DNA of 64,000 nt from Candidatus Zhuqueibacterota bacterium (GTDB taxonomy: Bacteria; Zhuqueibacterota; Zhuqueibacteria; Thermofontimicrobiales; Thermofontimicrobiaceae): positions 21,801 to 85,800 of the forward strand of contig JBMOPW010000003.1 of NCBI GenBank assembly GCA_049322915.1. The letters run 5' to 3'. The first letter of the stretch is position 1, and each line of letters begins with the position of its first letter. The notes under the pieces were generated by a model. It did no database searches and was not told where the DNA came from. It worked only from the letters and a program-made list of their open reading frames with translations. The position numbers were made by a program, and so were the translations under genes. Below, one piece after another: positions 2,682 through 57,734 of this stretch.

Positions 2682-2997
2682 ATATATTTTTAGAAATTAA
2701 ATAGAGTCTGTCCGAAAACTGCTATTATTGACCTCACCCGAACCCTCTCCGAAAAGGCTTACCCTTACCCATATCTTTTCTAACGCAGAGACCGCAGAGG
2801 TACGCAAAGTTTTGGTATTGAAAAAAAGCTGTTTGCAAATTTATGAAACCATGTATTTTCCTGGTTATTCTGGTCTTCTGTGACTATGGGTGAACATGAT
2901 TTTCAATGTTTGATTGAAAATTTTAAAATCACTCTGGCCAATTCAACGCGGATCTTTTCTCTGCGCCCTTCGCGACCTCTGCGTTTCATTTGATGTG

Positions 2998-3105
2998 TTA
3001 ACCCTACTACGTCACATAGATTTTTTATCGTTGTATATTGTATTTTTGATAGATGAAAAACTCAACATAGTGTGATAAATTTACTAAATGACGTTGTAGG
3101 GTTAA
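2998..3105 (+). mobile_element. MITE family B copy 1 (108 bp, 17-bp terminal inverted repeats ttaaccctac[t/a]acgtca)
   Basis: 107/108 identical to the reverse complement of 40419-40526; ends are mutual reverse complements; no ORF. Confidence 0.7.
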
Positions 3106-3248
3106 TATCCCCCAACTTATGGGCAAGGGTAAGCCCAAAAGGCGAGGGAGAACAGATGGTCCCCTTCTTGCCCGCAGGGTAAGAAGGGGTTTTGGGGATG
3201 AGCTCTGACGTAGTGAAGTTTGAAAATATCACCCCCATAGCTAATTCA

Positions 3249-3410
3249 GCCTGCATTATTCATAGTATTTTTAGAGGAGGCTGGCTAACCTGAATGGTGC
3301 TCTTTTTAGAATAAACGTATAAAAACTGAGTTTCAAAATAGCTTAGCCTTTAGCTAATTGAAAATCTCAATGTTGACTCAAATTCTGAGCAAGTTCATGA
3401 ATAATTCAGG
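3249..3410 (-). mobile_element. MITE family A copy 1 (about 160 bp, terminal inverted repeat gcctg[a/c]attattcat), inverted relative to the other two copies
   Basis: Near-full-length reverse-complement match to 53139-53298 with a few mismatches; TIRs present. Confidence 0.7.
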
Positions 3411-3494
3411 TTAGGTGTTTTCGGACAGACTCTATTGAGCTAAACTTGATTATAAAAATCCATTTTAAAAATTTAGGTTTAGTAAAAAATAAAC

Positions 3495-10333: not shown

Positions 10334-12220
10334 TCATTTTATGACTGTCAGTTTATACCACTGAGCACCCCTGCAAGTTTCGATGCGATACAGGTAAACG
10401 CCGGAAGCGACAGATTGACCTGCGTTATTTTGCCCGTTCCAGAGCACGCGGTTCCAGCCGGGATTCGCGATGAGATTGGGCCAGGATTTTATCAGTTGGC
10501 CCAGCGGATTGAAAATCTGCACGTTTGCCGGGCCCGGTCGTTCAGCATAAAACTGAATGGTCGTGGCGTTGTTGAGCGGATTGGGATAGTTGAAGCTGGT
10601 CTCATATTTTTCAGGCAAGGCATCAGGAACAATTTCCACGGCCGTTGAATTGGGCAACCATTCCATCAGTTTTTCCCGCTCCATCTCGCCGCCGCTGGAG
10701 CTATTGGCGACATTGTACGTCCACCACATCCCGGTGACGCCGCCGCCGCTGATGGTGGTTGAAAACGCCTGGTTGGACATGGCGCCGAAATAACGCGCCT
10801 GGTTGCCGGGATATTCTTTATCATCCCAGGTGCAGTCAATCGGAACCCATCCGTAATTGGGAAAATAGACCTGCTGCCAGCGATGAAAGATGCGGTCTTC
10901 GTACGGGAGGTCGTCGCGAAGATGCCCGCCAGCTTCCATTCGCGCCGGGATGCCGGCGGCGCGGCACAGCGCCACAAACAAAAACGTGTATTCAGAACAG
11001 GAGCCGGTGCCGCGGCTGAGCACTATCGGAGCGGTGTCCCAACTGCTGTCGTTGATGTATTCGATGTGCGAAATCACGTAATCGTGGATATTGCGCACCT
11101 GCCAGTACAGATTGCTTTCATCGCCAATGGCCTCTTGCGCTGCATTACGAATGACAGGATGGGTTATGTCGTAATACTCGCCGTCCGGCGTGTACATGGT
11201 GATGATGGATTGCGGAATGTCCGTCAATTCGCCAACACTGTCAGGGTGAAGGAAATAGCGGATGTTGTACAGCGTGGCCGGCACAGACCACTGGTACAAT
11301 TTTTCTTCGCCCGCCGGAACGGACTCTTCGTAATAGGCAATTTGTTGACCGAAGTAGTCAGTATAAAAAGTGTGCGGTTCATCCCTGAACTGAAGCGTAT
11401 CTTCCAATTGCTGGTAGACGGCTTCGAACGGGCAGGCTAAGTAGGTCTGCAAATTCATCACGCTGGAGCCGACATTTTTGATGGTGACAGTGTACCTGAT
11501 TTTCACCAGAAATGGATCGGTGATTTGATATTTTTCTGTTCCGGCGATGGAGATTTTATAAATCCGGTCGTGCTCGTAATCGGCATTCCAGAGGAAATGG
11601 CCGTCGAAAGCCAGTCCGTAGGAATAGGTACCCGGCGCATTCAGGATAGTGAAAATCCTGCCGCGATCTGTTTCCAGCCGGTAGATTTCATCTTTATCGT
11701 AATCCGCGCACCATAGATATTCGCCGTCCCAGGCTAATCCGCGATTGTAGCCGCCGGGCGAAATGAGCGTGTCGGCGTAGCTGCCGGTTTCCGGGTTTAG
11801 TTTGAAGATGCGCTTCGCCTGGCTGTCCACGTACCAGAGAAACTCGCCGTCCCAAGTTAGCCCGCGGGGATTTTCGGTTCCCACCGGAACAATTTTGGTG
11901 ATGGAACTATCTTCGACGTCGATTTGGCAGAGCTGGTCGTGCCCGTTATCCGAGCACCAGAGGAACTGGCCGTCCCAGGCCAGGCCGTTTATCGTGGCGT
12001 TTGCCGGGCTGGGCAGGGAATAGAGTACCTGTCCGGTCTGCGGATCGATCTTGTAAATTTGGTTTGTGCCAATATCCGCATTCCACAAAAATTCGCCGTC
12101 CCAGGCTAACCCGGTGGGGCGACTCCCGGGCGAAGGGAAAAAATCCAGGACAGCACCCATCTGGGCGTGACCAGTTGAAAAGAGAAAAAGAATAATCCCG
12201 ATGAGCTTCATTGGTTTCAT
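10334..12220 (-). CDS. Secreted beta-propeller repeat / transglutaminase-like cysteine protease-fold protein with T9SS C-terminal sorting domain
   Basis: Signal peptide; 5-6 repeats of GLAWDG(E/Q)FLW; transglutaminase-like core GSCSEYTFLFVALCRAAGIPAR with downstream H and D (HRWQQVYFPNYGWVPID); C-terminus NYPNPLNNATTIQF...GVYLYRI. Confidence 0.75.
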   Translation of the reverse strand: MKPMKLIGIILFLFSTGHAQMGAVLDFFPSPGSRPTGLAWDGEFLWNADIGTNQIYKIDPQTGQVLYSLPSPANATINGLAWDGQFLWCSDNGHDQLCQIDVEDSSITKIVPVGTENPRGLTWDGEFLWYVDSQAKRIFKLNPETGSYADTLISPGGYNRGLAWDGEYLWCADYDKDEIYRLETDRGRIFTILNAPGTYSYGLAFDGHFLWNADYEHDRIYKISIAGTEKYQITDPFLVKIRYTVTIKNVGSSVMNLQTYLACPFEAVYQQLEDTLQFRDEPHTFYTDYFGQQIAYYEESVPAGEEKLYQWSVPATLYNIRYFLHPDSVGELTDIPQSIITMYTPDGEYYDITHPVIRNAAQEAIGDESNLYWQVRNIHDYVISHIEYINDSSWDTAPIVLSRGTGSCSEYTFLFVALCRAAGIPARMEAGGHLRDDLPYEDRIFHRWQQVYFPNYGWVPIDCTWDDKEYPGNQARYFGAMSNQAFSTTISGGGVTGMWWTYNVANSSSGGEMEREKLMEWLPNSTAVEIVPDALPEKYETSFNYPNPLNNATTIQFYAERPGPANVQIFNPLGQLIKSWPNLIANPGWNRVLWNGQNNAGQSVASGVYLYRIETCRGAQWYKLTVIK

Positions 12221-16015: not shown

Positions 16016-17629
16016 TCATTCGAGCGGTGACCATTCACCGTATTGTTCGATGTAAATGCGACATTTATCTTTGGATGTCCATCGATTATTGAAGTTGTAT
16101 GTCCAGTCGAGATAATCGGAGCCCCCGCCGCCAGTGGTAGTAATGATATAGCGGCAGGCGATATTGCCAATGCCGGCTGCCTGTTCGCCGGGTCTGGCTT
16201 TGTCGCCTTTGTTGGCGTCGAAGGGGATCCAGCCGTAATTTGGCAGATACACCTCGCACCATCGATGATAGACTTCGTCGAGGCTGGCGTCGTCGCCCCG
16301 TTGCGATACAGCGCCGACATAACGGGCAGGAAGCCCTGCGGCGCGGCACAGCGCGATGAATGAAAATGAATATTCGGAACAGGATGCCGTGCCTCGTTTC
16401 AAGACGGTCGTTGCAGTGTTCCACCCGCCGACTGGCTTTAAATTGTACGTGAGATTTTCGATGAGATAATTAAAAATCTTCCGCGCCATCCAGTAGGGAT
16501 TCTGCTCGTCCCCAACGATTTTTTTTGCCAGGTTCTGAATGAAGGGTTCGTGGACGTTGAGTTTCTTTCCATCAGCAAGATACGTTTTCAATATTTCAAC
16601 CGGCACACTTTCGAGTGCGCCCACTTTAACCGGATCAATGAAATATTCGGCCGCCCAGATCGTGGCATCAATGGTCATCGTCGCCCGAAAAAATTCCCCG
16701 CTTTTAAGATTTTTCACATTGAAATAAGCGACCTTTTGGCCCCATTGGTCAGTCAGGATTTTTTCCGGTTCAGGGACAAATGTGACGGGGCGAGACAGTT
16801 GCTGGTTATCCCTGTTTTCCGGGATGGCGAGATACACATCTGCCGAGATGACGGTGCCTGGTCCGTAATTTCTGAAATCGATGGTATTCTCCAGCCGTTG
16901 TTTCTTGGGGGACAACTTTGTCAGAAACACCGGATCATCGATTTTTATCCTATAAATTTTGTCCGCTTGATAATCCACATTCCAGAGAAAAGCGCCATCC
17001 CAGGCGAGTCCGCGGGCGTATTGGTCCGGTGCGTGAATGGACCCGATGACCATGCCGCTGTTCCGATCCATGCGATAAATAGCATTCTCGCCCCGATCGG
17101 CGATCCACAAACAGTGCCCGTCAAAAGCCAATCCGTCAGGATCGTCGGCTGGCGATGGGAAATTGTGAATCATCATGCCGTCCTCAGGGTCAAGACTGAG
17201 CACCAGATCCAGTTTGTCATCGACGACCCAGAGCAATGTACCATCCCAGCAAATGTCTTTGGGATTATCGGTGCAGGCTTCGATCACGCGTTCAGCGATT
17301 CCGGTTTCAATATTCATTCTGTAAAGAAATCGCTCCTTATCATCCATCGCCCAGAGATGCGTGCCATCCCAGGCCAAACCCGTCGGACTGAAACCGGGCG
17401 CGGGAAAAGTGTGAATGACGAGGCCATTATTCGGATCGATCTGATACAGATTATCAGTTTTTCGGTCAGCAACCCAGAGGTATTTTCCGTCAAACGCAAG
17501 CCCCGTCGGATGGTCTCCGGGTGAATTCATTGTGTATACGATTTCACCAACAAAAGCAAAACTCACCTGTGAGCAAAGGCTCATCCAACTGAGGAAGCCA
17601 AGCATAAACCATATTCTCAAGGTTTTCAT
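16016..17629 (-). CDS. Beta-propeller repeat / transglutaminase-like protein, paralogue of 10334-12220 lacking the T9SS C-terminal domain
   Basis: 537-aa ORF; signal peptide; GLAFDGKYLW/GLAWDGTHLW repeats; core GTASCSEYSFSFIALCRAAGLPAR plus HRWCEVYLPNYGWIPFD; GAGGAG RBS. Confidence 0.75.
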   Translation of the reverse strand: MKTLRIWFMLGFLSWMSLCSQVSFAFVGEIVYTMNSPGDHPTGLAFDGKYLWVADRKTDNLYQIDPNNGLVIHTFPAPGFSPTGLAWDGTHLWAMDDKERFLYRMNIETGIAERVIEACTDNPKDICWDGTLLWVVDDKLDLVLSLDPEDGMMIHNFPSPADDPDGLAFDGHCLWIADRGENAIYRMDRNSGMVIGSIHAPDQYARGLAWDGAFLWNVDYQADKIYRIKIDDPVFLTKLSPKKQRLENTIDFRNYGPGTVISADVYLAIPENRDNQQLSRPVTFVPEPEKILTDQWGQKVAYFNVKNLKSGEFFRATMTIDATIWAAEYFIDPVKVGALESVPVEILKTYLADGKKLNVHEPFIQNLAKKIVGDEQNPYWMARKIFNYLIENLTYNLKPVGGWNTATTVLKRGTASCSEYSFSFIALCRAAGLPARYVGAVSQRGDDASLDEVYHRWCEVYLPNYGWIPFDANKGDKARPGEQAAGIGNIACRYIITTTGGGGSDYLDWTYNFNNRWTSKDKCRIYIEQYGEWSPLE

Positions 17630-24425: not shown

Positions 24426-25043
24426 ATGGGATTTACCGAGAAACTGATGGAACAGGGGCGCAAGCCTTACGGTGTGCCGGGCAGAATCATTGGATATTTA
24501 ATGAATCTCAGTCACAGAAGTGTCTACAAATGGGGTCTTGGTTGTATTTCACCCGGGAACAAAGCCATCGTCCTCGATATTGGCTGCGGTGGTGGAGAAG
24601 TAGTCAAATCATTAGCGATGAACACACCAGAAGGGAAAATATATGGGCTTGATCATTCTTCGGAAATGGTAGGTCTGGCGCGGAGAGTGAATCAGACATT
24701 TGTAGACAGCGGCCGGGTTGAAATCAATCACGGTATAGTGTCATCTTTACCATACTCGGATAATAAGTTTGATATTGTTACCGCGTTTGAGACAATACAG
24801 TTTTGGCCGAACCTGGATGCGGATTTAAGGGAAGTGAAACGGGTACTAAAGCCGTTGGGGGAGTTATTGATAGTAAACAGGTATCCTGATTTGGAAGGAC
24901 GGAATGCGGACTGGGCAGAGTTTTTGCAGATACGCTCATCAAAAGAATATCAAGAACGCTTGAATAATGCAGGGTATAGAGATATTTCAATTGATGATGG
25001 TTCGAAAGCGGGATGGATTATGGTGTCAGCGAAAAAGCCTTAA
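24426..25043 (+). CDS. Class I SAM-dependent methyltransferase
   Basis: 205-aa ORF with SAM-binding motif VLDIGCGGGE and downstream acidic-loop region. Confidence 0.85.
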   Translation: MGFTEKLMEQGRKPYGVPGRIIGYLMNLSHRSVYKWGLGCISPGNKAIVLDIGCGGGEVVKSLAMNTPEGKIYGLDHSSEMVGLARRVNQTFVDSGRVEINHGIVSSLPYSDNKFDIVTAFETIQFWPNLDADLREVKRVLKPLGELLIVNRYPDLEGRNADWAEFLQIRSSKEYQERLNNAGYRDISIDDGSKAGWIMVSAKKP

Positions 25044-40161: not shown

Positions 40162-40418
40162 GCATTCACCGATTCATCGCGATGTGTTTCTGATCTGAAG
40201 GAAATGTCAGTAATGGGCGGGTCCGCGGCTCGGATATCGCAGCGCGTTCACGGCGCGCCGACTTGAATGCCACAGGCGCTCTTCAGTCGTGCCATCGGCA
40301 GATTGAGCAGCAGGATTGTAAATTTTTCGGCGCCAAGCCCGGTTCGATGGAATCCATCGAAGCAATATACATGCTGGCGCCTGGCGCAAACTAAACTGTG
40401 TGATATTAGAACTGAAAA

Positions 40419-40526
40419 TTAACCCTACAACGTCATTTAGTAAATTTATCACAATATGTTGAGTTTTTCATCTATCAAAAATACAATATACAACGATAAA
40501 AAATCTATGTGACGTAGTAGGGTTAA
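40419..40526 (-). mobile_element. MITE family B copy 2 (108 bp), inverted relative to copy 1, 18 bp upstream of the rtcB ATG
   Basis: Reverse complement of 2998-3105 with a single mismatch. Confidence 0.7.
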
Positions 40527-52879: not shown

Positions 52880-53602
52880 ATGAGAGCAACTATCCTTTTC
52901 CTGACGGTCGCCATCTTGCTGGCCGGTGCTCTGTCAACTTCGAACGGACAGGAAGCAGGGGAGATGAAGCGATCGGACTATGGCGTCTTCAGCTTCTGGC
53001 AGAGCGTGACGCTGCCCGGCGCGCCGGGGATCATCTACGATGCCATCACCGGGGATATCAGCGGATGGTGGGATCACACCTTCTCCGGAAAGCCGGCGCG
53101 TTTTTTCATCGAGCCCAAACCCGGCGGCGGCTTCTATCCTGAATTATTCATGAACTTGCTCAGAATTTGAGTCAACATTCAGATTTTCAATTAGCTAAAA
53201 GCTAAGCTATTTTGAAACTAAGTTTTTGTACGTTTATTCTAAAAAGAGCACCATTCAGGTTAGCCAGCCTCCTTTAAAAATACTATGAATAATGCAGGCT
53301 ATGAAATTTTTGATGAAAGCGGCGATGGCGTGTTACACGCCACGGTCATTTATGCCCAGCGCGGCAAACTGCTGCGGTTCGAGGGCCCGCTCGGCCTTTC
53401 CGGCAGAGCCGTGACGCTCGTGTGCAGCTATTCTTTCGCTGCGGTCGGCGCCGATTCCACAAAACTGATATTGGACGTCCATATAGCCGGTGAAATCGAT
53501 GCCGCCACAGCGCAGATCGTGAAAAGCGTCTGGCATCATTTCATCATCGAACAATTTAAACCCTACATCGAATTGGGCAAGCACCTGAAGAAAAAGGACT
53601 GA
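52880..53602 (+). pseudogene. Secreted SRPBCC (AHSA1/CalC-like) protein gene interrupted in-frame by a MITE insertion
   Basis: ORF 52880-53170 (MRATILFLTVAILLAGAL... IIYDAITGDISGWWDH ... KPGGGFY) and ORF 53285-53602 (EIFDESGDGVLHATVIYAQRGKLLRFEGPLG...) share one frame; removing 53139-53300 joins them into a single SRPBCC-like reading frame. Confidence 0.7.
53139..53298 (+). mobile_element. MITE family A copy 2, flanked by TA dinucleotides (candidate target-site duplication)
   Basis: TIR tcctgaattattcat / atgaataatgcaggc; TA at 53137-53138 and 53299-53300; matches 3249-3410 (inverted) and 56464-56616. Confidence 0.7.
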
Positions 53603-53605
53603 GTC

Positions 53606-56299
53606 ATGGTAAAGAAGCAGGTTCATGTCATCTCCCACACCCATTGGGATCGCGAATGGTACATGACGTTTCAGCAGTATCGTCTGAAACTGGTCGACCT
53701 CATCGACACCCTCCTCGATCTGCTGGAGAAAAATTCCGACTATCGCTATTTTCATCTGGACGGTCAGACGGTTGTGCTGGACGATTATTTTGAAATTCGG
53801 CCGGAGAACAGGCCGCGACTGGAAAGCCTTGTGCGGCAGGGGCGCGTTTTAATCGGTCCCTGGTATGTCCTGTGCGACGAATTCCTGGTCAGCGGCGAAT
53901 CCATTGTTCGTAATTTGCTATTGGGACATGCCATGGCCGGCGCCCTGGGAAAGGTCATGAAAGTCGGGTATGTCATCGATGCCTTCGGGCATATTTCGCA
54001 GATGCCCCAGATTTTTGCCAACTTCGAAATCGACAATGCCATCATGTGGCGCGGCGTGGGCGGCCCGGATTTCAAATCTGAATTTTACTGGCGTTCCCCG
54101 GATGGCTCCACTGTCCTCACTTACAAGGTGCAGGATGTGGGCGGCTATTGTTACGGCGTGTTTCTACCTTCAGAACCGGAGGCGTTGCAGCAGCGACTTG
54201 CCGCCATTTTGCAGGAGCGGCAGCGCCACGCCACCACCGACCATCTCGTGGTGATGAACGGCTGCGACCATATCGAACCCCAGCCCAATTTGCCGGCCAT
54301 CATCGAATTGGCCAACCAGATCGAACCGGACGCGAATATTTTTCACAGCACCATTCCGGAGCTGTTCGCCCGCCTGAAAGAGGACGTGAAAGGAATTCCC
54401 ATGTTGAAAGGCGAGCTGCGGGACAATCAGCATGTCAATCTCCTGGCTGGCACGATTTCCTCGCGCATGTATTTGAAAAAAGCGAACAACGACTCCCAGA
54501 CGCTGTTGGAGCGATTTGTCGAGCCGCTCGCCGCAATTGCCTGGACGCTGAGCGGCCGCTATCCTCAGGCGCAAATCTGGCAGTCATGGAAATATCTCAT
54601 GCAAAATCAACCTCACGACGACATCTGCGGTTGCAGCGTGGATGCGGTCCACGAACAGATGCAGACGCGATTTGCCTGGTCCCGGGAAATTGCCCATGAT
54701 CTCATCGACCGCAGTTTCTACACCATTTTTAATACGCCGGATCTGAACGCGCTTGATGCCCGGCAGGCGGATATCATCCTGTTCAACCCGTTAGGCTGGA
54801 AGCGGAGTGAAGTGGTGACCGGCCGCGCAGATTTCCCGGCCGACACGGAAATCTTCTCCATCGCTGTATCGTCTGCCGATGCAGCAACTGTTCCCTGTCA
54901 GGTGGAGAGCATCCGCGTCGTCGAAAAATTGCAGGTCGACCCGCGTTTCGGGCCGATGTCGGTGATGGTGAAGCAGGTGACTTTCTCTTTTCTGGCTGAA
55001 AATATTCCATCGTGCGGGTATAAATTGTACCATGTCATTCCGGCGGCGGACCTGGCCGAACCAGCCACGGATCTGGTCGTTGAAAATTTCTCCGCGGAAA
55101 ATACATTCCTCAAAATACGATTCCGCCCGGAGGGGACATTTGATGTGCTCAATAAAACGACGTCCCAGACCTATTCCAATTGCAATCTGTTCGAAGATGG
55201 TGGCGACAGCGGGGATGAGTACACCTATTCGTTTCCGATGAAAGATCGGCTCATTTATGGATTTGAAACACCGCCGCAAATTTCCATCGAGCAGCAGGGG
55301 CCGGTGAAGGCTGTCTTCATGATCAAGGGAAATTTGAAACTGCCGGAGTCGCTCAATCCGGATTTTCAGTCCCGAAGCGATGCAGAAGTTACCTGCCCGG
55401 TCATCAGTCGAGTCGCGATCCATTCCAAAACCCGATACATACAAATTTCCACGGAGATCGATAATCGCGCAAAAGATCACCGGCTGCGGGTCCTGTTTCC
55501 CAGCCAGATTCGCGCGGAATTCTCATTCGCCGGCGGCAACTTCGATGTGATCAGCCGGAAAATTGCGCTGCCGCCCAGGAAGGGGTGGATGGAAGACCCC
55601 ATTCCCACGCATCCATTCCAGCATTTTGTTTCCATCAACGACGCCGGCCGCGGTCTGACCATTGCCAGCCCGGATGTGACGGAGTTCGAGGTGAAGCGGA
55701 CGCCGGAAAGTCCCATAGCCCTCACTCTGTTGCGCTGCGTTGGGTCTCTGGCCAGGTTCGATCTCATGACGCGCAAAGGCCGGGATGGCTGGCGTTTCAA
55801 AACGCCCGGCGGGCAATGCCCCGGCGTCCATCAATTTTCATACGCCATCATTCCCCATGCCGGCAACTGGCTCAGCGACGAAAGCCACACCCTGGCGTTC
55901 AACAACTCCACGCCGATGCTCACGAAACAGATTCGGAAGAAGCCGGAGCAATTGCCGGAGACTGGGGCCTTTCTCACTGTTCAGCCGGCGGAACTGGTGC
56001 TGTCCTGCCTGAAACGCAGCGAACACAACGATGCCATCATCATTCGCATGTACAATATTTCCAACCGGGATGTGGCCGGACGAATACACTTCTTCCAGCG
56101 GATTTCCACCGCGCGAATCGTGACCATGGCCGAAGAGCCGGTGAGCCATGGGGAACTGGTGATTGACAACAACCACACCCTGTCGGTGAATTTCCCGGGA
56201 AACAAAATTTTGACAATTGAGCTGTTCATTGCTGAAACCGAATTGCGCAAGGAAGAGTTTTTCCCGCCCATTCATAAAATTATGGAGATGCAGGGATAG
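53606..56299 (+). CDS. Glycoside hydrolase family 38 alpha-mannosidase-like protein
   Basis: 897-aa ORF; N-terminal GH38 signature VHVISHTHWDREW; AAGGA RBS. Confidence 0.9.
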   Translation: MVKKQVHVISHTHWDREWYMTFQQYRLKLVDLIDTLLDLLEKNSDYRYFHLDGQTVVLDDYFEIRPENRPRLESLVRQGRVLIGPWYVLCDEFLVSGESIVRNLLLGHAMAGALGKVMKVGYVIDAFGHISQMPQIFANFEIDNAIMWRGVGGPDFKSEFYWRSPDGSTVLTYKVQDVGGYCYGVFLPSEPEALQQRLAAILQERQRHATTDHLVVMNGCDHIEPQPNLPAIIELANQIEPDANIFHSTIPELFARLKEDVKGIPMLKGELRDNQHVNLLAGTISSRMYLKKANNDSQTLLERFVEPLAAIAWTLSGRYPQAQIWQSWKYLMQNQPHDDICGCSVDAVHEQMQTRFAWSREIAHDLIDRSFYTIFNTPDLNALDARQADIILFNPLGWKRSEVVTGRADFPADTEIFSIAVSSADAATVPCQVESIRVVEKLQVDPRFGPMSVMVKQVTFSFLAENIPSCGYKLYHVIPAADLAEPATDLVVENFSAENTFLKIRFRPEGTFDVLNKTTSQTYSNCNLFEDGGDSGDEYTYSFPMKDRLIYGFETPPQISIEQQGPVKAVFMIKGNLKLPESLNPDFQSRSDAEVTCPVISRVAIHSKTRYIQISTEIDNRAKDHRLRVLFPSQIRAEFSFAGGNFDVISRKIALPPRKGWMEDPIPTHPFQHFVSINDAGRGLTIASPDVTEFEVKRTPESPIALTLLRCVGSLARFDLMTRKGRDGWRFKTPGGQCPGVHQFSYAIIPHAGNWLSDESHTLAFNNSTPMLTKQIRKKPEQLPETGAFLTVQPAELVLSCLKRSEHNDAIIIRMYNISNRDVAGRIHFFQRISTARIVTMAEEPVSHGELVIDNNHTLSVNFPGNKILTIELFIAETELRKEEFFPPIHKIMEMQG

Positions 56300-56463
56300 C
56301 TCCGCGTTTTGACCTGTTGAACCGGTGATCCGTATCGTGTCTGTGGCTGTTTTGGCCTGATTTTTTAATCTCAAATAAAGCAATAGAAATTTGAAGAATT
56401 ACCACCAGGACTCGAAGTCGCTACGTATCACTAATGAAAACAGAAGCTGTTTAGCCTGAATTA

Positions 56464-56616
56464 TTCATGAATTCTCCAATAGGCCAACTTAACATTATGT
56501 TTTCATAATGTGTGAATGTATATGCAAAATCAAACTCAGTTTTATATTCAAATTTTAAATTTATGCACCATTCAGGTTATCCCGCTTCCTTTAAAAATAC
56601 AATGAATAATGCGGGT
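56464..56616 (+). mobile_element. MITE family A copy 3 (diverged interior), about 140 bp upstream of the ABC ATPase gene
   Basis: Both termini match copy 2 (gcctgaattattcatgaa ... caccattcaggtta.cc.gc.tcctttaaaaatac.atgaataatgc.gg); TA flanks at 56462-56463 and 56617-56618. Confidence 0.55.
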
Positions 56617-56756
56617 TAGAAATTTTTAGACAAAAAAATGAAAAAGTTTTCTCATAAAGTTGATAATAACATTTTGTAAATTCATTCTTTGAGTCTTAGC
56701 GCCTTTGTGGCTATTGCATTATCCGGGTTGATAACCTATTCATCCGAAAAGCGACC

Positions 56757-57734
<978 letters not shown>

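Follow-up and report, generated by a model that had tools for sequence, protein, structure and literature searches.

The insertion sequences of the IS1380 family have ends that begin with CC and, as described in ISfinder, duplicate 4-5 bp of target DNA. ISSsu5, a member of this family, is an element of 1,687 bp (PMC13055272), and the direct repeat of IS1247 is 5 bp long (PMC3281130). ISEcp1 and ISPme1, also of the IS1380 family, are reported to move neighbouring DNA when a repeat-like sequence further downstream is taken as the end in place of the usual one (PMC9330008). In the part of the literature that we searched, we found no description of MITEs with IS1380-family ends, or of the repeat sequences that are reported below.

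Here we describe three small elements found in a 64-kb stretch of DNA (the window, by which we mean the whole stretch that was analysed), compare their ends and their target duplications with those of elements in other genomes, and argue that they were probably moved by an IS1380-type transposase acting in trans.

Results

The window contains three elements of 161 bp, each measured from CCTG to CAGG (CGGG in copy 3), so that the three copies of about 160 bp given in a preliminary description are confirmed (Table 1). That description had placed all three loci correctly, but its borders were off by 1-9 bases and took in one base of the target duplication; the outermost bases that it assigned to the element (g/t...c/t) are part of the duplication and lie outside. 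The terminal inverted repeats, imperfect as it had said, are 14 bp long and read CCTG[A/C]ATTATTCAT. The G+C content of the elements is 30-33%, against about 50% for the window. Copies 1 and 2 are near-identical, as had been noted, with 156 of 161 positions in agreement, and were also detected as an inverted pair (167 nt at 96%). Because these two copies differ at only five of 161 positions, transposition in this genome appears to be recent. Copy 3 can be aligned with copy 2 at its left end (21/27) and its right end (46/51), and the interior that separates these ends, rightly called diverged, shows background similarity (36/83).

We found seven matches in the window to the end pattern CCTGMATTATTCAT with up to two mismatches, where 1.26 were expected, and none of 100 shuffles gave seven. 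The three copies, with two ends each, account for six of these; the seventh (24960-24973) falls within the coding sequence of an ORF (24426-25043) and was put down to chance. BLAST of the copies against the window returned no further copies. The longest ORF inside the elements is 35 aa and is not common to the copies, which agrees with the earlier statement that they lack coding capacity, and the view that they are non-autonomous, needing a transposase from elsewhere, is supported by their being non-coding and bounded by terminal inverted repeats. The elements are thus short and non-coding, have terminal inverted repeats and target duplications, and occur in several copies, as is characteristic of MITEs. 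We conclude that the window element is a genuine MITE that has been recently active.

Table 1. Positions of the MITE copies, their flanks and associated features in the window, with the locus handles of full-length relatives.
Feature	Position or loci	Strand	Description
Left flank of copy 1	3246..3249	.	TCAG, degenerate duplicate of TTAG, one mismatch
MITE copy 1	3250..3410	- (inverted relative to copies 2 and 3)	161 bp; terminal inverted repeats CCTGAATTATTCAT / CCTGCATTATTCAT, 13/14
Inner-repeat site, copy 1	3287-3300		Equivalent to the copy 2 site
Right flank of copy 1	3411..3414	.	TTAG, target duplication
5' fragment of interrupted SRPBCC/AHSA1-START-type gene	52880..53137	+	Homology of restored protein
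Target-site duplication left of copy 2	53134..53137	.	CTAT
MITE copy 2	53138..53298	+	161 bp, inside gene; terminal inverted repeat match 13/14
Degenerate inner repeat, copy 2	53248..53261	+	GCACCATTCAGG, then TTAG; subfamily alignment
Target-site duplication right of copy 2	53299..53302	.	CTAT
3' fragment of interrupted gene	53299..53602	+	In-frame continuation after copy 2
Target-site duplication left of copy 3	56451..56454	.	TTAG
MITE copy 3	56455..56615	+	161 bp, interior diverged; terminal inverted repeats CCTGAATTATTCAT / CCCGCATTATTCAT, 12/14
Inner-repeat site, copy 3	56565-56578		Equivalent to the copy 2 site
Target-site duplication right of copy 3	56616..56619	.	TTAG
Full-length relatives, same or one-mismatch ends	L086-L090, L105-L108, L109-L118, L119, L121-L135, L137, L141
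Full-length elements with 5- or 6-bp duplications	L084, L086, L088-L090, L105-L108, L119, L122, L123, L130, L137, L141, L149

The direct repeats that flank the copies are 4 bp long and of the type YTAR (CTAT/CTAT, TTAG/TTAG and TCAG/TTAG). The TA that had been reported on either side of copies 2 and 3 is present there as the core of this repeat, but the real duplication is 4 bp. Copy 2 was said to lie inside a gene, and its excision restores a conserved ORF: deletion of positions 53138-53302, which comprise the 161 bp of the element and one CTAT (4 bp), rejoins the two gene fragments in frame and gives a protein of 185 aa. We found 1659 homologues of this restored protein at E<=0.001, some of which are named SRPBCC or AHSA1/START domain proteins. 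The best of them are 57-71% identical, 170-195 aa long, uninterrupted and colinear across the junction. The junction itself falls inside an invariant motif, PGGGFY/EIFDE (the slash marks the insertion; GGGFYEIF), and the invariant residues that span it are G82-G84, F85, E87 and I88. Judged by these homologues, which supply the empty site at the protein level, copy 2 is a true insertion into a functional gene and not a duplicated motif. It accounts for a pseudogene, the split SRPBCC gene.

A larger inverted-repeat element (2700-3436) carries copy 1 within its right arm, and the repeat hotspot to which this copy had been assigned does hold a nest of other repeats. The larger element is foldback-like, with three nested arm pairs (2700-2724/3412-3436 at 92%, 2743-2773/3118-3148 and 2782-2800/2967-2985), and houses both MITE copy 1 and a second small element (2998-3106), forming a nest of insertions. 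This second element is 109 nt long, recurs at 40418-40526 in inverted relative orientation with 99% identity, and has ends that read CCCTAC[T/A]ACGTCA with TTAA directly on both sides; its CC ends and TTAA duplication are like those of IS1380 or piggyBac elements. No partner transposon for it was found in a scan of viral contigs, where the only match to its end (TTAACCCTAC...) lay inside a peptidase gene and was rejected as chance.

Copy 3 occupies a 457-bp spacer between a GH38 gene, which ends at 56299, and an oligopeptide-type ABC ATPase gene, which starts at 56757; it had been described as lying upstream of the latter, and the distance is 141 bp. Elsewhere in the window, periodic imperfect repeats of 123 nt (62-78% identity) at 11558-12113 and 16952-17374 fall within long minus-strand ORFs (10334-12220 and 16016-17629), and are presumably the coding repeats of a repeat-domain protein present as two paralogues.

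We asked whether the same ends occur in other genomes by scanning a single genome for each species for pairs of ends separated by 115-145 nt, a size range that was imposed by the pattern. The preliminary description had held that finding no other copies genome-wide, together with flanks conserved in relatives, would speak against a mobile element; we found the same ends at at least 65 loci, in many genomes, so that the element is not confined to the window. Among the listed matches, MITE-sized elements with these ends come from genomes whose labels cover at least a dozen phyla, these labels being record titles that may be wrong in the case of MAGs. Labels among the listed loci include Zetaproteobacteria, Gammaproteobacteria, many Bacteroidota, Gemmatimonadota, Aminicenantes, Cyanobacteria and KSB1, as well as Caldithrix, Nitrospira, Lentisphaerota, Ignavibacteria, Deferribacteres, Eubacteriales and Streptococcus suis.

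Within the listed matches, 52 elements had readable flanks. The flanking 4-mers were identical in 26 of the 52, against a chance expectation of 9.2 when left and right flanks were re-paired at random, and they agreed within one mismatch in 39; a 5-bp repeat was seen in one. The identical 4-mers have the consensus YTAR (TTAA 10, TTAG 10, CTAA 3, CTAG 1, ATAC/ATAC 1 and GTAG/GTAG 1). Identical pairs that are non-palindromic, and those that depart from the consensus (ATAC/ATAC and GTAG/GTAG), show the 4 bp to be a duplication rather than an extension of the inverted repeat. When the 14-bp ends were removed, the interiors of 68 elements among the listed matches fell into about 37 groups, each restricted to one genome or to close relatives. 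What these elements have in common across phyla is the transposase recognition end alone, the interiors being lineage-specific, and MITEs with these ends appear to have arisen many times.

One assembly, CAYOLL01 (labelled Gemmatimonadota; L009, L040 and L103), carries MITE-sized elements with these ends and also encodes a protein that, at 66% identity, ranks among the closest homologues of the SRPBCC gene interrupted in the window; the genes around this homologue show no synteny with the window. Lone repeats were seen at L004 and L058, where the adjacent ORFs are ordinary genes and not transposases.

The elements most closely related to the window copies come from loci with the labels KSB1, Ignavibacteria and Cytophagia and from 11 metagenome loci, and all are 160-173 bp long. 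The right end of this subfamily consists, in order, of an inner repeat (TGAATAATTCAGG), TTAT or TTAG, about 20 nt (CCCGCT.CCTTTAAAAATA..) and an outer repeat (ATGAATAATGC[A/G]GG). This inner repeat pairs perfectly with the left end, but in the window copies it is degenerate and reads GCACCATTCAGG; a YTAR-like tetranucleotide follows directly after it, as after a true end. By analogy with ISEcp1 and ISPme1, we infer that the doubled right end may descend from the use by a transposase of a second, downstream end. Alternatively, the inner repeat could be a putative second transposase-binding site. A metagenome scan with the right-end pattern gave the 11 loci mentioned above, all MITE-sized and none a parent of the subfamily, and the subterminal motif had no matches in viral contigs.

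When viral contigs were scanned for TAR followed by the end, 18 loci were returned. In one of these (L068), two perfect CCTGAATTATTCAT ends lie 1649 bp apart with the flanks TTTAG/TTTAG, and the 440-aa ORF between them matches the NCBIfam model NF033539 'IS1380 family transposase' at 388 bits (cutoff 180) and Pfam PF13701 at 476 bits. An IS1380 gene stands beside the end in three more of the 18. The other 14 loci contain a lone repeat with no transposase of any family adjacent, and were set aside as chance matches.

Further relatives were collected from viral contigs, plasmids, phages and the protein collection, with protein similarity as the sole criterion. They are 41-56% identical, and nearly all have the same or one-mismatch ends at a spacing of 1.65-1.68 kb; in two others (L139 and L149) the repeat departs by two mismatches at one end or at both. 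L088, from the group with a one-mismatch end, is 84% identical to the protein named by NCBI 'IS1380-like element ISSsu5 family transposase', and plasmid matches are annotated ISSsu5 and IS1678. The repeat end is therefore a clade-wide trait of one IS1380 branch, which accounts for its being conserved across hosts.

Wherever a transposase was found between these repeats, it was of the IS1380 family. The IS630/Tc1 partner that had been proposed was not borne out, as only IS1380 transposases lie between the repeats and the duplication is 4 bp and not TA; the family assignment is accordingly corrected from IS630/Tc1 to IS1380. The terminal repeats of the window MITEs are identical to those that bound IS1380-family transposase genes, and their ends (CCTG.../CCCG...) and 4-bp duplication fit the CC ends and 4-5 bp of the family. 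An IS1380-family element of 1622 bp on the B. fragilis plasmid pBFO17_1 (L168; NZ_CP036540, 67788-69409) has the divergent ends CCTTAATTCCGCAAC / CCTCAAATCCGCAAC and a 5-bp duplication, TGAAA, and splits a DUF5712 gene. This element shows that ends vary much within the IS1380 family.

The full-length elements and the MITEs differ in the length of their duplications. We found 5-bp duplications of full-length elements (CTAAA/TTTAG, AGATT, TTTAT twice, ATCAA, TTAAA twice, CTATA, TTTAG, CTCAG, ATATT and AATAA) and, in the ISSsu5-like group, 6-bp duplications, whereas no 4-bp duplication was seen among the full-length elements with these ends and readable flanks. P0189-type copies in short metagenome contigs had inconsistent flanks, are probably chimeric assemblies, and were excluded. 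Since the transposase sets the length of the duplication, the source of the MITEs should be a relative of the sampled full-length elements, and none of them. The 5-bp targets TTTAG, CTAAA and TTAAA resemble YTAR lengthened by a single base at its centre, so that the preference is related. Two observations on the ends are in keeping with a source outside the sampled elements. All sampled full-length elements have an 'A variant' (CCTGAATT...), and many MITEs have a 'C variant' (CCTGCATT...). Identical 4-bp flanks were present, among the listed matches, in 23 of 36 MITEs with at least one C-variant end, compared with 3 of 16 A/A elements.

No full-length element with a C-variant end (CCTGCATTATTCAT; CCTGCATT...) was found among those sampled, and viral contigs, plasmids and a few look-ups yielded no cognate full-length element combining a 4-bp YTAR duplication with the same subterminal sequence. 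A profile search of 1.84 billion representatives gave 1386 proteins at E<=1e-30, and a further viral scan with a diverse profile again returned 5-bp elements and no 4-bp full-length partner. In the window, tblastn found no transposase homologue. At L007 5000-5100 (NZ_AHZV01000025.1), in the isolate genome of Anaerophaga thermohalophila, TTAA is followed by a single CCTGCATTATTCAT end that, 100 nt short of the edge of the locus, could be the start of a full-length C-variant element.

Discussion

We put the probability at roughly 85% that the gene-less element is inserted at YTAR sites, with duplication of 4 bp, by a DDE transposase of IS1380 type whose gene lies elsewhere in the genome and which binds the 14-bp repeats CCTG[A/C]ATTATTCAT; that is, we infer mobilisation in trans by an IS1380-type transposase. 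The source transposase would belong to a subgroup of the clade that gives 4-bp rather than 5-6-bp duplications, and in the subfamily with the doubled right end it would have used a second, downstream end. Such a 4-bp subgroup is expected within IS1380, given the 4-5-bp range of the family. Counting against an IS1380 source, the named full-length relatives obtained in protein searches are all from Bacillota, whereas the gene content of the window resembles that of Calditrichota, Ignavibacteriota or KSB1.

Could a different kind of transposase have moved these elements? TA stands beside both ends of copies 2 and 3, as it would around a TA-duplicating MITE of the IS630/Tc1-mariner type, and IS630-family MITEs are common in bacteria. 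The direct repeat is, however, 4 bp, with CTAT on both sides of copy 2. If TA were the duplication, the extra T...C would have to be complementary parts of the inverted repeat, which they are not, and the outer Y and R change together on the two sides, as the excess of identical flanks among the listed matches (26/52 against 9.2) indicates. Together with the finding that all transposases between the repeats are of the IS1380 family, this leaves an IS630/Tc1 origin close to untenable. The length of the duplication would be explained directly if the MITE had been moved by another family with 4-bp YTAR-type duplications, which ISfinder gives for the IS5 group of IS5 and for IS701, and owed its IS1380-like ends to convergence or remote ancestry; the sampled IS1380 elements that have these ends all give 5-6 bp, against the 4 bp of the MITE. 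Such an origin would need all 14 bp (14/14) to agree by coincidence with the ends of an IS1380 clade, and the match is clade-wide and was seen among elements fetched without use of the repeat. In the full-length elements, the 5-bp targets (TTTAG, CTAAA, TTAAA) look as if the same preference had been lengthened by one base, the 14 lone repeats in viral contigs have no transposase of any family adjacent, and the IS1380 family as described in ISfinder has CC ends and duplications of 4-5 bp. We consider an origin from another YTAR family improbable.

A reading without transposition, in which the copies are a regulatory motif that was duplicated, or a gene for a small structured RNA, would account for the position of copy 3 141 bp upstream of the ABC ATPase gene and for the interior motifs (AAACTCAGTTTT; TTATCCCGCT.CCTTTAAAAATA) that are kept among diverged members of the subfamily, and outward promoters can occur in IS1380 members (PMC9330008). 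Rfam has no family at threshold anywhere in the window (0 matches), the consensus fold of 13 subfamily members consists of terminal-repeat pairing only with 0 compensatory pairs, and folding of the single strand gives nothing remarkable (z = -1.89). Around copy 3, promoter-like matches number 4, no excess over the 2.2 +/- 1.4 of shuffles. One copy, moreover, lies within a coding sequence and destroys it. We therefore judge a regulatory or RNA role for an immobile element very unlikely, and retain mobilisation by an IS1380-type transposase.

The mismatch between 4 bp in the MITEs and 5-6 bp in the full-length elements points to an unsampled transposase subgroup, and poses a concrete if small question, namely how the spacing of the target cut evolved in the IS1380/piggyBac lineage. 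A broader and more speculative scenario, which we find possible but would not bet on, is that an undescribed IS1380 subgroup with piggyBac-like 4-bp TTAR/YTAR duplications seeded independent MITE families, all with one 14-bp end, in at least a dozen phyla, and that the doubled right end of the subfamily common to the window and to KSB1- and Ignavibacteria-labelled genomes is a fossil of end misrecognition of the ISEcp1/ISPme1 type. In practice, CCTG[A/C]ATTATTCAT tags a large IS1380 clade and MITE-sized derivatives across very different bacteria, and can serve as a search key for annotating these repeats in metagenome-assembled genomes.

How do the window MITEs compare with known systems? MITE239 and MITE700 of P. 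gingivalis are likewise small, non-coding and multi-copy, share their repeats with a cognate IS (ISPg3), have target duplications and can interrupt genes (PMC2575886), but they have a partner of another family. ISSsu5, IS1678 and their unnamed Bacillota relatives have ends that start with CC and are identical to the MITE ends (CCTGAATTATTCAT) or, in the ISSsu5-like elements, one mismatch from them (CCTGAATAATTCAT), and insert at AT-rich sites resembling T-T-(W)-A-R. These elements are 1.65-1.69 kb long, encode a transposase of 436-445 aa and give duplications of 5 or 6 bp, whereas the window element is 161 bp long, has no gene and has nothing in common with them beyond the 14-bp ends. PiggyBac, a eukaryotic relative of IS1380, has CC ends and a 4-bp duplication centred on TA, TTAA (PMC5718144), and the MITEs described here most often duplicate TTAA or TTAG; piggyBac differs in being strict for TTAA and in having repeats with no sequence relationship to the MITE ends. 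Finally, in the 'transposable modules' of ISEcp1 and ISPme1, as would be the case in the window subfamily, a downstream repeat-like sequence serves as an alternative right end (PMC9330008), but these modules contain kilobases of captured DNA and a transposase gene, while the extra segment in the window elements is about 37 bp.
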